Source: Podarcis pityusensis (taxonomy: Eukaryota). Taken from it: 64,000 nt of DNA. Location of the stretch: the NCBI GenBank assembly GCA_964106645.2, contig OZ067048.1. One strand, given 5' to 3'. Each line of letters begins with the position of its first letter. Within the stretch, counting starts at the first letter, position 1. Below, piece by piece: positions 5,186-63,774 of the stretch. The translations under genes and the position numbers were made by a program. Below the pieces are notes generated by a model. That model was not told where the DNA came from. It saw only the letters and a program-made list of their open reading frames with translations, and did not search any database.

Positions 5186-5255
5186 GGAGCAGTCCTCAAG
5201 ATAGCCCTAGAAATTTTTCTCCTAGTGCCTCAGCCCACTTTTCTTTTGCACGAAG
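5186..5255 (+). CDS. MAST4: MAST4 exon 2 GSSPQDSPRNFSPSASAHFSFAR
   Basis: ttctcaccag acceptor, AG|gtagga donor; 70 nt, phase 1/2. Confidence 0.93.
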
Positions 5256-5593
5256 GTAGGATGGGTTTGTGTGTATTTGATGTGTCATAATTAATAGTTG
5301 GGAATCATGCTCCGCTTTGCATTTATGCATTTATAATATGCTGGTGGAGGTAAGAAACACCAATATATGTTGCATTAAAATGCAATTCAATTTATAATAG
5401 TCTTCACAACTTGCTTCTTGATACTGCTAATTTCTTGCAATATCTAAAGTTCATTCATATAAGAACCAGGATTACCACCTCTTTCCCTTCCTTCATAGTA
5501 ATTTAATTTAATTTAATTAATTTTAAAAAGACTAGAAAACAGCAGCTTGTAATCCAGCCTTTGCAAAACTGTACTAGTGAATTATAGGAGCCC

Positions 5594-5725
5594 AGAATTG
5601 TAGAGTTGGAAAGGACCTTGAGGGTCATCTAGTTCAATCCTCTGCAATGCAGGAATCTCACCTTGATCAGATGGCCATACAACCTCTGCTTAAAAACCTC
5701 CAAGGAAGGAGTGTCCATGACTTCT
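5594..5725 (-). mobile_element. CR1 LINE 3' end fragment
   Basis: agaattgtagagttggaaaggaccttgagggtcatctagttcaa is the reverse of a typical CR1 3' tail. Confidence 0.7.
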
Positions 5726-7779
5726 CATGATAGGTATCAGTACATTCTAAAACCTTCCACTCATAAATTGGTATGTGCTATTTAATGCGGCATCTTGAGA
5801 GAGAGTCCTTTGACTTCAAACTAGCTCTTCCACAACTGTAATGATACGTGTGTTGTTATGGGAAATACTGAAGGAGTTATCTACCTCAGTGATTTCCAAA
5901 ACCAGTTTCCTACTACACTGAAAGGAGCCAACTGGGGTGGAGTACAGTATGGGAATCTGTCAAAAGAGATTGTCACTACATTGTCATTCTGCAGAACTAT
6001 TAATTAAGCCACAATGCTGTGTAGTGAGTCACCCAGAGAAGAGCTGCCATTGTTGATTAGGGTGACTCTACTGATGAAGATGCCCCTAGCAGAACGAAAC
6101 CCAGAAAATAAGACAGAGTGAAAGTTGTGTTAGAAGAAGAGTGGATCCTGCCTCATCTGGCATAGGTTAGAATGTAAAAGAACCAATGAATGCCCTGAAG
6201 AGAGTGCTAGGTTTTGTCTACCCAGGAATTAATTTTTTAATTTTTGTATAGTTTTTGGAAGATGCATTTGTGATTGTATAGTACTACTGCATCAGTATAA
6301 GTGATCTGTTGGTCACCTGAAGTATTTGACTAATCCGAAGCATAGGATTACATTTACTTGTGAATACATTGCGGGTTGGTTAATGGCTACTCAGCTGTAT
6401 CAGAAAATGAACCCATTCTATATAAAGGAAACTAGTGGTTTCTAAAAAATTGTTATCTGAAGCATGCACAGATAACCAGTGTAGCTGATATGTAGCTTGA
6501 GGTTCAAATGCTACACCTTCCTCCCCACCTGTCTCGGCACCCATAAATAGATGTGAAAATAACATTAAAACTGGAATGTTCGAACATGATAATTGTCAAA
6601 TGCTGGACAATGACCCCACGTTCTCTAGTGGATTCAGTAACCTGGGTAAGAAATACCTCTTCTCCAAATAACTGCAGTCTCCTGCAGTTTTTGCCTATGA
6701 TCCTTTCTCTTTTTTCGGTGAAGAAAGCCACAAACCTGAATACAATTCCATTTGTCATGGCCTTATAGAAATCATAGAAGTATTACTGTTGGGAGAGACA
6801 GATGCATAAAATGTTACATCTTGATTATATACAGATTTATTTGAAAATTACGATTGATTTATCTTGCAGTTTCTATTCTTTCAACATTTTCTTTAAGGAT
6901 ATACTATTCCTTCCCAATTTATTTTCCATCTTCTTTTCATATTTGTTCAGAAACATAAACCACTACTATGTATTTCAGAATAGCTGATTGAAATCTAATT
7001 TACATTGTGTGCCAGTTTTATACACTAGAGGAAATACCAATAGGAAAAAAATAGATCTGTAGCATAATAAATTGCATTGATTCTCTGAGTTGTAACTGTT
7101 ACCATGAGCAAAATTCAAAGCCAGGAATGCAGGAGTTACCCCTTCTTCTATTCGTATATAGGAATTTCCCATTGTAAGACTAAGTTTTGCCTTGCTCATA
7201 GAATAAAACAGAGGATCTTATGCACATGTGTGCATGTGTGGGTTGAAAGCCCAACCCAAGAGTTTTGGGAATGAAAAGTTCATCCTAACTTTGCTGATTT
7301 AAAAGAACTGTGCATCTCAAAAATCTGAAAAAAGTCTTATCTTACTACTGTCATTACGTGTTTAGGATATGTGCTTTAAATATTAAACATTATATATTTG
7401 TGTTCATAGAAGTGTTTCTCCCTGAATCACTACTTTCGCAACAATCTATTTTTCAGTGAGGAATTAATCTGTTCTTTAGCAAGAGGTTCTCATCCCCCCG
7501 CCTTCTAGATTAGAGCAAGTCTTACACAATGCATTTTCTTCATTGCTTTGTTTTCAAAGCTTAATGAGCATGCTAGAAGTGGCAAAGTGCCATTATACCA
7601 GCACTCCCTTCCTATTTACCCCTCTGCAATATGAGTGAAATTGTCATCACTCTAGCTGACTGCTATGCATATAGTAAGGATCCTGAAATACATGTGAGGA
7701 TACATCACAATATGAGACTTAGTTTTCACACCATGCAAGTGAAAGTTGGCAGAGCAAAAAACATAGTATGGTAACATGA

Positions 7780-7990
7780 AAGGGGTGTCTGTCTAGTTCA
7801 CAAGACCATCAGTGGTCCATTAACTTCATTTAGATGGTCTTTGGCATGCTTGTAAAGATACAATTAAAAACATTACAACATCTATCACAGCACATTACAA
7901 TTGCTCCAACAACTAGAAAAATCATTAAGTGGTCCACCAAGACCCTCAGCAACCAAGTGGTCCACAGGGGGGAAAAATGGGAACTACTGA
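7780..7990 (+). mobile_element. Old hAT-like non-autonomous element, same family as 44121-44745
   Basis: Shares caattaaaaa...catcta.cacagcacattacaattgct with 44611-44656; boundaries approximate. Confidence 0.55.
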
Positions 7991-8328
7991 TCTATTCAAC
8001 ACAGCAGTTTTCTTTAAAACCAACAAATTTCTAATAAGCAAATGTTCATACATCCTATTACTGAATGGATGCCACTGGTTGCTCTTCTGGCCTTCTCTGG
8101 AAACGTAGCAAGACTGGCATCTCACTATTTCTTCAGGGGAAATAGGACTTCATGGGACGTCCACTTTAGAAGTCACCTTGGTCTGACACCACTTTGCTAT
8201 AGCATTATGAAAAAAATCACCAACAGGGTGTTTGTGTAAATAGAAGCAGGTCGTTGCATTTACCAAAGTTGAGTAAAAGATAGAGATGGGCTTTGGATAA
8301 ACAACAAAGTTGCATCATTAAGTTATGT

Positions 8329-8464
8329 CAGGGATGGAGAACCTGAGGCTCTCCTTATGTTGGATGCCCAACTCCCATCACCCCCAGCTGCCTTGGTTAT
8401 TGATCAGGGATTATGTGAGTTGTAACCTGACAAAATCTGGAGCACCACAGATCCCCCACCCCAG
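8329..8464. mobile_element. Old 136-bp palindromic hAT MITE
   Basis: CAGGGATGGAGAACCTG left end, degenerate inverted right end, flanks AGTTATGT/AGTTGTGT (8-bp TSD with one mismatch). Confidence 0.65.
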
Positions 8465-8644
8465 AGTTGTGTTTCTTTTTACATCTGTTGTAAAATTGGA
8501 AGATCTTTTGCAAAATGCCATGCAGGGTACATCCCCATATATTTTGAAGCTGTCTATGCTGATTGTCATGCACTTATATTTAGAAAGTTGTTGTTCTACT
8601 TCTTCATTTGTTTTTTAAATATACTTTGCACAATTATAATGCAG

Positions 8645-8665
8645 TCATGGGCATCGAAACGAGAG
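8645..8665 (+). CDS. MAST4: Putative alternative 21-nt microexon of MAST4 (reads S-H-G-H-R-N-E-R)
   Basis: T-rich tract then aatgcag acceptor, GAG|gtaact donor; phase 2/2 and frame-preserving; the peptide resembles the SH(S/G)HR-x-DR insert I recall at the same position in paralog MAST2. Confidence 0.75.
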
Positions 8666-9512
8666 GTAACTGACACAAAAACTTACTACTCTCTTTTTAT
8701 GGTTTGTTAATTTGATTGTAAATTTCTGACTAGGATTGCCAACTGCCTAGAAACAAACCAGCCAAGCCAGGGTTTTTCCTTTTTCTCAGAACAGTGTTGA
8801 TAAAGTGGGGCGGGGAAAGCTGATCTCCCCACTATTAGTTAAGCAGCACTGTGTAACCTTATTGCATAGACGGGTCACAAAAATGTAAAAGGCTCTCATT
8901 CACCACTGGAGCCCAGGAAGACAGCATTGAAGGAGCTCTCTTCACCATTGTGCTGGGAAGCTTACCTGCTTTGCCCCGGCACTGATTAGCAATCACAAAG
9001 CTATCGGTTGTGTTGGATGCAGACAGTGCATATCATGTGTATGTTATTTTCTACTTTTGTCTGTGAAACAGTTGTAGTCTCCTGTTAGACATGGATGGTA
9101 GTGCTGTAGCAGAGGAATTATAAACACAGGCACTAACTGCACATGTTACATGAGCAGAGAATTTAGGCCTCATCCAGCTGAAAATTTGAGTTGGCAGTCC
9201 TATGTCTGAATGTGGATTACATGTAGCAGAATTTGAAATTGTCCTACATCGTAAATGTTTTGTTCTACCAAAATTTATAATTTTATGAAAATGTTTAGTT
9301 TTGCAAGTCAAGCTGCTGTAATTCTTTGTGCATTTTAGATACATTTCCATGTACATTCCATTTTCTAGCCTGTCATTGTTGTGCATCGGTCTCTCCTCCA
9401 TCCTGTTCCTGTTTAGCATTGTCTTTAACCGATATCCTAAAACATCCCATTCACAGCGGGATTATTTCATGTGCTTTTTAAAAAAGTGCCTTGTAAAAAC
9501 GCTTGCTTATGA

Positions 9513-9725
<213 letters not shown>

Positions 9726-60010: not shown

Positions 60011-63000
60011 GTACAAATTCTTCTCAGAGTAGCTCTCCAAGTTCAAGTGCACCCAATTCTCCAGCTGGTTCTGGGCATATTAGGCCCAGCACACTTCATG
60101 GTTTGGGGCCCAAGCTTGGTGGGCAAAGATACAGGTCAGGAAGACGCAAATCAGCTGGCAGCATTCCTCTCTCTCCTTTGGCACGGACTCCTTCTCCAAC
60201 CCCCCAACCAACATCTCCTCAGCGGTCTCCATCACCTTTACTGGGGCATTCAATTGGAAACACAAAAATAGCTCAGGCTTTCCCTACAAAAATGCACTCT
60301 CCTCCCACTATTGTCAGACACATAGTGAGGCCTAAGAGTGCAGAACCACCCAGGTCTCCTTTGCTCAAGAGGGTTCAGTCAGAAGAGAAACTTGCCCCTT
60401 CTTATGGCACTGACAAGAAACACTTGTGCTCTCGCAAGCACAGCCTGGAAGTAACTCAGGAAGAAGTTAATAGAGAGGTATCTCAACGGGATACAACCCT
60501 TCAGAGCCTGGAGGAGAACGTTTCTGATGTGCCATCACTCACACGAGTGAGACCTGCTGAACAAGGCTGCCTGAAACGTCCCATTTCCAGGAAGTTGGGC
60601 AGGCAAGAATCTGTTGATGAGCTGGATAAAGAAAAATTAAAGGTTAAGATAGTTGTGAAGAAGCAAGATCTGGCAGAGAAACAGGAATATTTGCAGAAAG
60701 CAAGCACCGTACATGAAATTTGTGGTGAATCAGAAAACCCAGTTGCCTCATGCTTAGAAGAGAGAGATAGCAAAAAAGCATTTCAGAAAGCTTTGGAAAG
60801 ATCAAACCACTTTGAAGCTAAAATTGCAGCTCTGGAGACAGAGTCAGTAGGTGGCATGCTAAAAGACACCCTTCAGAAGAATGCAAGCATGAGATCAAAT
60901 GATTGTACTGCTTTGGATGCGCACACACCATGTCATGGGCCTCCACTTAATGAGCTCAGTCATTTGTCTTATGACTTCAAAAGAATCCCCCCTCCATGTA
61001 CATTGCAAAATGTTCTGCCTCACTCATCTGACAAGATGCCGAATGGGAAAGGAGAAAATGTAGATAAATCTGCACCGACAAAAGAACCTGTCAAATTTGA
61101 AAGATTAGATAGTAAGCTTGCAAATATTGATTATCTCCGGAAGAAAATGTCCTTTGAAGAAAAAGATGACAACTCCTGTCCAGTGCTAAAGTCCAAACTG
61201 ACACCAAGTGTACATGAATGCCATCAGCTGAGTGCAGTCAGACCTATAAACATGCTGCAAGATTCCACCTCGGTGACTGAAAGCCGATCATTTATTAGCA
61301 GTGCTCATGCCACTCAGATTAACTCTGTTCCTTTCATTCCTCTCAAAGGATTGACTGGCCGAACAGAAGCTGGTGTGGAGAAATCAGCCTTGATTTCCAC
61401 AGAGTCACCTGTCCGAAAGAGTCCTTCAGAATATAAGTTAGAAGGGAGGTCTGTGTCTTGCTTGAAGCCAATTGAAGGAACCTTAGATATTGCTTTAATT
61501 TCTGGGCCACAGTCTTCAAAGACAGAAGTGTCTTCATGTGCAGTTGCAGGGGGCCAAAATGCCAAAAACGATGGCCAACCACTCATCTGCCAAGGAGGCA
61601 TCAGTGTAAAGGTTGAGCCGTCTTGTCAGAAAGTGCAGCAACCAGTCTTTCAACAATCCAGTCCTTATGAATCTAATCTACTAAAGTTCCAGTCTCCAAA
61701 GCCAAATAAAAGTACTCAGAGCTCACCAGCAATGCCTGTGACCACTGAACAGCAGTCAGAAAAGACACTTTCCAATTTCAGTGCTAAATGTGACCCCTCT
61801 GTAAAGGTGATTAATCAAAAGAAAGAGGTTATTCAGCTTTCAGCACATGAGGCTAAATCCAGCAGTTCCCAAATCCAGAGTTCCACCTTGACAAGTTGCA
61901 AATCTGCCCATGCACAGGGAAATCCTGAGAAAGCCAAACGGAAAGAGAAGAAAACCTATAAAGAAGGACCAGACAACCACACAAGGCCTCAACCAAGTGA
62001 TAGCATCCTTCCAGAGAAGCCTAAGGCAGTTGAGGTTTCTCCATCAAAGAAATCTGTTACAGACGTGTCACCAAATCAGGATGCAAAACGCATTCAGAGG
62101 TATTCCTTTGATTCAGTTGCTCAGCAGCAAATACGTGGAATAGCAAAAGTACAAATAGCAAGCTCGAAAATAAAGTTCAAAGATGTGCTCAAGCCATCGG
62201 TGAAAGAGGATGAGAACACCACTAGAGACTATTCAGCAAATGAGTTGGGCCTGCAGAAAGCAAGTGGATGTTCCAAGCCTGAAGCATCACTTCTGGCTGG
62301 TGTAACCGTGCAAACGGACCAGGGGGAAAAAGAACAGAAGCAGTCCAAAAATGCAGAGCCTCCAGCTGGTAACAAAGAGTCCAGCATTGCTTCTAGGCAA
62401 CAAGGTAGCAATTCTGATCTTTCCGCTGCAAAAGAATTATTAAACAGGCCCTGTGTAGTGGATGCTCCTGGTTGCTGCAGCATTAAAGATAATATGAGAC
62501 CTGCAACACACATGGAAAATAGCACTGTTAAATCTAGACCAGTTCCTGACACTTGTTTCTCGAAATTGAAACATTCTGAAAAACAGACACAAAAGCAAAT
62601 AGCTACAAACGTAAAAGAAAAAGAAACTGGCCCTCATGCTTTGGCCGGCTCCTTGAAGGAGGGGAAAAACATCAATAAGTCTGCACTGGATTCTTTTTCA
62701 CACCCTCCAAGCTCTCGGAGAAAGCTAAATAATGAGCAAATACAGGCAGAAAGGCATCTGGTCATAGAATGTGGGTCAGAACCCTCAATCCACATCAATA
62801 GCACCTTGCCTGAAAAACAGCTCAAATCCTCCAATAAAAAGCAAGCAGCAGCAGCAGCCCCAGATGGCGCTAAGCATTTTCAGAGGCAAGAGATGGCAAG
62901 TTTAAACGATCCTGCTGATCAAAAGCCATTCAGTATACGTACCAAGCAGAACACGCCTCCCAAGACATCGTCAGCTGTAAAAGAGGGCTCCTTGCTGAGC

Positions 63001-63774
63001 AAACCGGCCGACAAGAGCCCAAACATTCAGGCCACCTCTGCGGAAATGCAACCTGAAGGGGGAAAATGCACCGATGCACTTTATTTTCAAACTGACCACG
63101 GGAAGCCAGATCCTAACCTTTCCCTTCTTAGCTGTGATGCCAGAGGAAAAGCAGCGGAAAAGGCAGTCACGGGTGCGAAGAACTTTCAAGACACTAAAGG
63201 GAAAGGGCACATGAATCAAAAGCAGCTATCCGAGGGGAACAAGCAGCATGCTGCAAAACATTCCTCCAGCCCTGCTTTGCAGAGTTCGTGTCGTGCAGCT
63301 TCAAAGCAGCTTGAGTGCCCACCCAGCTTCCCTGAATCTAGGCCGGAAGCCCCTGTTCTGCCTTCAGCAAAGGCTAGCCTGGGGTCCCCCGAGCCACTTG
63401 CACTGAGCAGCAGGGAAGTGAAAAAGCAAGCCGGCTCTTCCTCAGCAGACGGCAGGGCAGAAATGACTAAAAGTGTTTCCCTTTTGGGCTTGCACTATAC
63501 TCCGTCCCCTGTGGAAGAGAACATTCCCACTTCAGACTTGGCGGGGAAGCACAAAAGCCAAGAGAGGTCTCACTCTGCTGTGGACATGAAGGGGAAAGAC
63601 CCCGGTCTGCCTCAGTCTTCTGCCGCGAGAAAACCGAATGTAGGTAAAGATTTGCCAAAGTCAGGGACTCCAGCTGACTCTCCCAATGCACTTTCAGCCG
63701 ACAAAGACTCTGCCCGGCCGAGGAGAGGAAAAGACACCTCCCGAAGCAGCCCTCACAAAAAACCCTCCCAATAG
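60011..63774 (+). CDS. MAST4: MAST4 terminal coding exon (3764 nt; Ser/Pro-rich, largely low-complexity tail ending [10 protein letters not shown])
   Basis: ctcttccag acceptor; the long ORF 59968-63774 in the track; TAG stop at 63772-63774. Confidence 0.96.

Follow-up and report, generated by a model that had tools for sequence, protein, structure and literature searches.

The MAST4 gene of the lizard Podarcis pityusensis almost certainly contains a real microexon of 21 nt. The exon lies at positions 8645..8665 (+ strand) of the window, the 64,000-nt stretch of contig OZ067048.1 (GenBank assembly GCA_964106645.2) that was analysed here. It preserves the reading frame and adds seven residues, SHGHRNE, ahead of a conserved serine. 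Our best explanation, which we hold to be probable as a whole, is that this exon is optional, is included mainly in neurons with the aid of SRRM3/4, and tunes the serine equivalent to S90 of MAST1. The exon itself is already known: it is present in automated annotation, and its mouse counterpart and its MAST2 paralogue are catalogued targets of SRRM3/4. New here are the homology of the exon across three paralogues, its apparent shortening from 21 to 9 nt in placental mammals, and its place beside a site for PAK4 and 14-3-3. Within open-access full texts, neither a MAST4 microexon nor its shortening was found in the text of a paper; supplements may differ.

The host gene

The last exon in the window is 97% identical to MAST4 of Podarcis muralis (P0001, RefSeq XP_028605058.2). 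Residues 250-2606 of this protein map to the window as 24 exon matches, and the first 249 residues map beyond it. The labels ‘exon 2’ and ‘exon 3’, given to the flanking exons in a first-pass annotation of this DNA, thus hold as counts within the window and not for the gene. The DUF1908, AGC kinase and PDZ domains are present in this order (Pfam on P0001, across the 24 matches). In the phylogeny, the gene groups with MAST4, a clade with support of 100/99, and not with MAST1-3; the other three paralogues are on other contigs of the same genome.

Two further features of the gene were observed. Its last coding exon is very long, at ∼1254 codons (60011-63774). Comparison of P0121 with P0001 places a further alternative exon of MAST4, 27 residues long, at the junction at window position 745 (residue 249/250 of P0001); its length agrees with that of the 81-nt exon catalogued as neural in mouse and zebrafish Mast4.

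Sequence and splice sites of the microexon

The upstream exon (5186..5255, +) codes for HFSFAR at its end and contributes two bases to the codon that follows, with a phase-2 donor at 5256. The host intron (5256..9631, +; 4376 nt, phase 2) is split by the microexon into 3389 nt before it and 966 nt after it. A CAG acceptor (8642..8644, +) and the donor GTAACT (8666..8671, +) bound the microexon, which is in frame, free of stops, and turns FAR-R-TDGRRW into FAR-SHGHRNER-TDGRRW as read from the sequence. The downstream exon (9632..9710, +) is 100% identical in four paralogues of the lizard's own genome over the matched residues. The first-pass annotation was borne out on the 21-mer and its bounding bases, on the phase-2 intron and on the peptide change.

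Between AG and GT, the host intron holds 437 candidate exons of 3-30 nt, 116 of them in frame and stop-free, and the donor of the microexon ranks first among these 116. With C at +5 and a score of 4.15 bits, compared with 4.68 for the upstream exon, on an approximate textbook donor matrix, this donor scores as moderate and not ‘good’, as it had been called. Four stop-free candidates in the intron are 21 nt long, and a paralogue-like peptide is found in 8645-8665 alone (BLOSUM62 score of 36, against 2 and 1).

The acceptor is poor in pyrimidines proximally. Their share there, 0.47, is the lowest of the gene's 25 acceptors (0.53-1.0 for the 24 constitutive ones), and the distal share is 0.73. 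A T-rich polypyrimidine tract (8590..8616, +) is set back from the acceptor within a zone of 55 nt that is free of AG. Three yUnAy matches lie within 100 nt of the acceptor; the closest (8603..8607, +), with its A at 8606 (-39), is the predicted branch point. A TGC at 8627..8629 (+; -18), identical in the other genomes compared, is a candidate SRRM3/4 enhancer. The first-pass annotation located this TGC correctly and overstated its weight: one occurs at -22..-6 in 42 of the 142 YAG sites of the host intron and in six of the gene's 24 constitutive acceptors, so that by itself it is weak evidence.

The two divergent DNA contigs compared, from other genomes that are both close relatives, have no listed substitution over 8581-8659; for one contig, picked after the fact, the chance of such a substitution-free stretch is ∼0.04. 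Within the exon itself, a single change was listed in another genome; it is at position 8660 and leaves the amino acid the same. Contigs from four putative RNA runs left the flanking exons uncovered and held no splice joint across the microexon. Three of these runs gave low-depth unspliced pieces over it, which may derive from DNA or pre-mRNA and were weighed neither way. Elsewhere in the host intron, 5594-5717 is a high-copy repeat with a summed contig depth >12,000 in four runs, and 5492-5528 is a short AT-rich simple repeat.

Spread of the insert among MAST4 proteins

The exon had been described as hidden, and the description fails: the RefSeq model of P. muralis already includes SHGHRNER. 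In a first, sauropsid-dominated search, 26 of 120 MAST4 proteins contained the insert, 88 skipped it, and the motif was missing in six. The carriers comprise eight squamate proteins with SHGHRNER, 17 bird and turtle proteins with SHGHRNDR, and one variant with an extra serine. Counts with and without the insert, from 15 listed members for each of eight clusters, were 7/7 for lacertids, 8/7 for Anolis, 8/7 for Pogona, 6/9 for colubrids, 7/8 for turtles, 10/4 for galliforms and 11/4 for passerines; the crocodilian cluster (12 crocodilian and two frog proteins) had the insert in 0/14. The insert counts rest on predicted gene models, and isoform models from the NCBI pipeline rest on RNA-seq. The conservation in other reptiles and birds to which the first-pass annotation had looked was found at the protein level, in squamates, turtles, galliforms and passerines.

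Among proteins with the motif, the insert was present in 0/12 from crocodilians (P0039, P0206, P0208, P0210-P0218) and in 0/12 from frogs (P0207, P0209, P0233, P0480-P0488). No row named as crocodilian or frog was among the best 120 of 2723 matches to the insert-bearing stretch. These absences reflect either loss or missing annotation.

The matches just mentioned were obtained with a 42-residue query bearing the insert, and the best 120 of the 2723 are ordered by how closely they resemble the form with the insert, so they do not make up a sample. Among them, MAST4-type proteins carry SHGHRTDR or SHGHRADR in sharks and rays, SHGHRPDR in gar, tarpon and arowana, and SHCHRADR or SHGLRADR in teleosts. 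MAST4 of the marsupial Dromiciops has SHGHRNDR, included in two of five isoforms. At the protein level, the exon is conserved from sharks to a marsupial, and a conserved, alternatively included MAST4 microexon is supported. As a separate observation, four proteins of other species (P0092, P0577, P0580 and P0581) have an extra serine directly ahead of RTDG, which a tandem acceptor would produce; no such option was seen at the lizard acceptor at 9632.

Paralogous exons in MAST1-3

The downstream exon has four matches within the lizard's own genome, and the other three copies were assigned via the helix-bundle exons to MAST2 (C6), MAST3 (C18) and MAST1 (C17). In the same intron, MAST2 has a 21-nt microexon encoding SHGHRADR (C6:52307976-52307996, +) and MAST3 has one encoding SHAPRTDR (C18:777795-777815, -). 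When candidates were scored by likeness to the other two paralogue peptides, the MAST2 exon came top of 14 (score 36, next 11) and the MAST3 exon top of three (score 26, next -8). The MAST2 counterpart that the first-pass annotation had named thus exists in this genome, and the comparison now extends to MAST3. In MAST1, none of 19 stop-free candidates of 21 nt qualified as a counterpart (the best scored 12, whereas the three real exons scored 26-36), and no 9-nt R-x-D/E-R candidate was found; a diverged counterpart may exist.

The surroundings of the paralogous exons were also recorded. The MAST2 exon follows a long pyrimidine tract, with no TGC within 100 nt upstream of its acceptor. For the MAST3 exon, the AG-free zone is 123 nt long, and both a (CT)n tract and a TGC at -21 are present.

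S, G, H and R are shared by MAST4 and MAST2 but written with different codons in the two genes (four codons, five silent base differences), a sign that the peptide is under selection. S1, H2, R5 and an acidic residue 7 are kept in the three paralogues and also from sharks to birds, and all three exons begin with YCAT and end in AG. MAST2 of shark, fish and placentals carries SHGHRADR or SHGHRTDR among the best 120 of 2723 matches, and MAST3 of bird, fish and one mammal-like protein carries SHxxRxDR. The length before DGRRWS also varies in outgroup-type MAST proteins (P0247, P0249, P0250, P0254, P0263, P0265, P0267), where 0 to ∼10 extra residues occur that are unlike SHxxRxDR.

By their sequences, the MAST2, MAST3 and MAST4 exons are likely to be one homologous exon, older than the MAST2/3/4 splits, and MAST1 is likely to have lost it. 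The best tree, built from 15 rows chosen from 27, is (MAST1,MAST2),(MAST3,MAST4) with support of 79/84. A MAST1-first tree, in which MAST2, MAST3 and MAST4 form a clade, has a p-AU of 0.168 and is not rejected. The origin before the paralogue split that had been claimed earlier stands as likely on this footing.

These comparisons bear on whether the exon might be an annotation artefact or a cryptic exon, that is, an intronic 21-mer lying between AG and GT by chance. Inclusion in the lizard does rest on predicted gene models. However, the peptide has been kept throughout jawed vertebrates and in three paralogues while the DNA changed silently, and independent annotations of many genomes include the exon in their models. 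In addition, a 1276-nt Logan contig (P0237) spans a multi-exon MAST3 stretch including the counterpart insert, and events are catalogued in mouse (PMC8797185). A chance 21-mer is exceedingly improbable.

Apparent shortening in placental mammals

The motif is present in 107 of 112 placental MAST4 proteins. Among these 107, 95 skip the insert, eight have RNDR, one has RNER, three have a single extra serine, and none has the seven-residue form. The three-residue insert (9/107 models) equals the last three of the seven residues, and the NDR of placentals is the end of the marsupial insert. A short NDR insert had been noted for some mammalian isoforms; this holds for placentals, whereas the marsupial keeps all seven residues. 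The three-residue form was not seen among the sauropsid or marsupial MAST4 proteins compared. Placental MAST2 was present, and placental MAST4 absent, among the best 120 of 2723 matches to the insert-bearing stretch.

By frame, the 9-nt exon corresponds to positions 13-21 of the 21-nt exon, and, should Arg be encoded by AGR, its acceptor would be formed by the two bases that open this codon. The protein forms and this geometry make it quite probable that placentals shifted the acceptor 12 nt into the exon, onto the AG of the Arg codon, and kept the last 9 nt; a minor 21-nt form may occur in placental MAST4. Lizard MAST2 has an internal CAG exactly at this would-be acceptor, and a 9-nt RADR form is possible there. 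The 21-mer of lizard MAST4 has CG instead of AG at exon positions 11-12, and a 9-nt form is therefore impossible.

A 9-nt exon of mouse Mast4 is catalogued as MmuEX0028014 (PMC8797185, table S2). It is in the same gene and at a similar place in its intron (4341/1430 nt, compared with 3389/966 in the lizard), and its length explains the RND insert of murid models: over 1250 residues, no other indel of three residues separates Mus pahari from two other murid models. The lizard exon differs in being 21 nt long, in also encoding SHGH and in having CG at the 9-nt acceptor site. From length, geometry and the RND indel, we infer that the mouse exon is the orthologue of the lizard exon.

Regulation by SRRM3/4

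The lizard exon looks like an SRRM3/4 microexon and like the orthologue of one. As in the eMIC class, its length is within 3-27 nt, its splice sites are canonical AG/GT, and it preserves the frame without a stop. The AG is weak, with the pyrimidine tract and the branch point well upstream of it, and a UGC lies between the predicted branch point (-39) and the AG, although the UGC is weak as a test. Conservation is deep at the protein level. According to one report (10.1101/2024.09.17.613571), a set-back pyrimidine tract and branch point are typical of SRRM3/4 targets, and a UGC occurs in 74-79% of known targets and is not strictly needed. The mechanism suggested by this layout is that the set-back branch point and tract would weaken the acceptor and lead to skipping by default, and that SRRM3/4 acting at the UGC spacer would raise inclusion. 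We consider it quite probable.

Known counterparts differ in their regulation. In the tables covered of PMC8797185, the mouse Mast4 exon is eMIC-sensitive, which denotes a smaller drop upon Srrm3/4 knock-down or Srrm4 knock-out, the 21-nt Mast2 exon (MmuEX0028003) is eMIC-dependent, and the 21-nt Mast3 exon (MmuEX0028009) is plain alternative; fly dop was not found there under four names. The 21-nt exon of human MAST2 (HsaEX0037980) goes from a PSI of 23.6 to 81.6 with SRRM4 (PMC7935315), and the Mast2 microexon serves as an Srrm4-dependent marker (PMC11283458). In zebrafish, the 21-nt mast3b exon (DreEX0045163) is neural, with a dPSI of 91.8, whereas the human MAST3 orthologue (HsaEX0037994) is not regulated, with a dPSI of -2.1 (PMC12626424). 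All of these mouse, human and zebrafish events are putatively placed at the lizard junction, by length and geometry. Within the lizard genome, the MAST2 microexon shares length, phase and junction with that of MAST4 and is identical in six of eight residues, but it is a paralogue that differs in its internal CAG and in having no nearby TGC. The MAST3 exon is likewise of 21 nt and in the corresponding intron, with a TGC; MAST3 events are neural in zebrafish and unregulated in human and mouse (PMC12626424, PMC8797185). Neural control thus appears labile in the MAST family, since the mouse Mast3 exon is plain alternative and its human orthologue unregulated.

Another reading is that the exon is real, conserved and alternative, with broad or weak regulation in the lizard rather than an SRRM3/4 neural switch. 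The 42/142 YAG sites with a TGC at such a distance and the mammalian Mast3 counterpart are consistent with it. So is human MAST2, whose exon is included in non-neural cells too (PMC7935315, PMC7049692) and responds to ZRANB2 and SYF2, which promote it in breast cancer cells (PMC7049692). The neural-exon table searched in PMC12626424 lists mast3b, and the 21-nt exons of zebrafish mast4 and mast2 are absent from it. Further points speak against the best explanation: the mouse Mast4 event belongs to the weaker ‘sensitive’ class, the human MAST2 exon already has a PSI of 23.6 before SRRM4 is added, and no TGC lies near the acceptor of the lizard MAST2 exon, though its mammalian orthologue responds to SRRM4. 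On the other side, the mouse Mast4 exon does fall upon Srrm3/4 loss (PMC8797185), and the lizard acceptor combines the lowest proximal pyrimidine share of 25 with a set-back tract. Broad or weak regulation is, in our judgement, distinctly unlikely. The human SRRM4-inclusion table of PMC7935315 had no MAST4 exon (12 of 19 supplement files searched), and no MAST rows occurred in the searched supplements of PMC12868881, PMC12626420 (12 of 13 files) and PMC9303857 (12 of 18 files).

Orthology leads us to infer that the lizard exon is included in neurons and controlled by SRRM3/4. For the first-pass annotation, which had proposed both, orthology is favourable, and the ‘sensitive’ class of the mouse event tempers the claim.

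Consequences for the protein

The insert forms residues 302-308 of P0001. It had been placed before a motif at the start of DUF1908; it is indeed near that start, but ∼20 residues inside the Pfam domain (282-562). The stretch is far N-terminal of the solved four-helix bundle, and no solved structure over it was found.

The neighbouring site is best described in MAST1. There, S90, in a ten-residue stretch with the motif GRRWS, is phosphorylated by PAK4 and then bound by 14-3-3, S77 is a second PAK4 site, peptide 85-97 suffices for 14-3-3 binding, and the N-terminus is disordered (PMC13598245); ‘splic’ has no match in the passages of this source that were searched. PMC12024977 and PMC12732324 link MAST1-4 to 14-3-3 and describe the start of DUF1908 as disordered; their passages on 14-3-3 and DUF1908 make no mention of the MAST4 exon. 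In lizard MAST4, a 13-residue stretch (9636..9674, +) is identical to the MAST1 85-97 peptide, which binds 14-3-3 when phosphorylated, and the codon matching S90 is at 9651-9653 (+; serine 316 in P0001). The site was shown for MAST1 only (PMC13598245), and lizard MAST1 yielded no microexon.

Counted upstream from the S90-equivalent serine, the insert starts 8 residues before it, and the 13-mer lies wholly in the downstream exon. From P-7 onward, relative to serine 316, both isoforms are the same. When the exon is skipped, P-8 is Arg and the HFSFAR serine stands at P-11; when it is included, P-8 is Glu and that serine stands at P-18. Lying beyond the 13-mer that is enough to bind 14-3-3, the insert would act as a tuner and not as a switch. 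The exchange at P-8 and the shift to P-18 might alter engagement of group II PAK or 14-3-3 at the S90-equivalent, in the unstructured start of DUF1908. That the insert fine-tunes phosphorylation of this serine or docking of 14-3-3 is a tentative proposal, possible but short of probable.

As read from the sequence, the insert has no net charge and introduces neither an R-x-S nor an R-x-x-S site; the words basic and phosphorylation-prone, used earlier of the segment, fit the flanks instead. Two other effects were considered and rejected. Inclusion does not make a basophilic phosphosite, as Ala and Phe precede the added serine at -2 and -3, and it does not alter the spacing of two 14-3-3 sites, as the insert is upstream of both and outside the S90-S161 linker.

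Splicing could also proceed as proposed while the peptide acts as a short motif of its own (SH-x-x-R-x-D/E-R), separate from the PAK4/14-3-3 site. A pure spacer needs no fixed residues, whereas S1, H2, R5 and acidic 7 are kept, and the insert is beyond the 14-3-3 core peptide. Yet the bases of the splice sites (the YCAT start and the AG end) in part dictate S1, H2 and the final residues, SHGH is missing from placental models, and no MAST1 counterpart was found. We know of no partner for such a peptide, and we regard a separate motif, which comes close behind fine-tuning, as somewhat unlikely.

Significance

A broader scenario can be drawn for the family. A single ancestral MAST gene would have had the microexon before the genome duplications of vertebrates; MAST2, MAST3 and MAST4 would have kept it and MAST1 lost it. 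It would act as a neuronal dial on the PAK4/14-3-3 site, and placentals alone would have gone from 21 to 9 nt via the AG of the exon's own Arg codon, with Srrm3/4 control retained. Taken in full, this scenario is unlikely.

The finding is useful to specialists rather than surprising. MAST kinase genes are tied to neurodevelopmental disorders, and the neighbouring PAK4/14-3-3 site, recently defined, offers a concrete biochemical test for a microexon of so far unassigned role. If the account given here is true, the lizard exon would represent the ancestral full-length state, and the family would provide a natural series of 0, 3 and 7 residues in which microexon length could be set against splicing sensitivity and kinase regulation.
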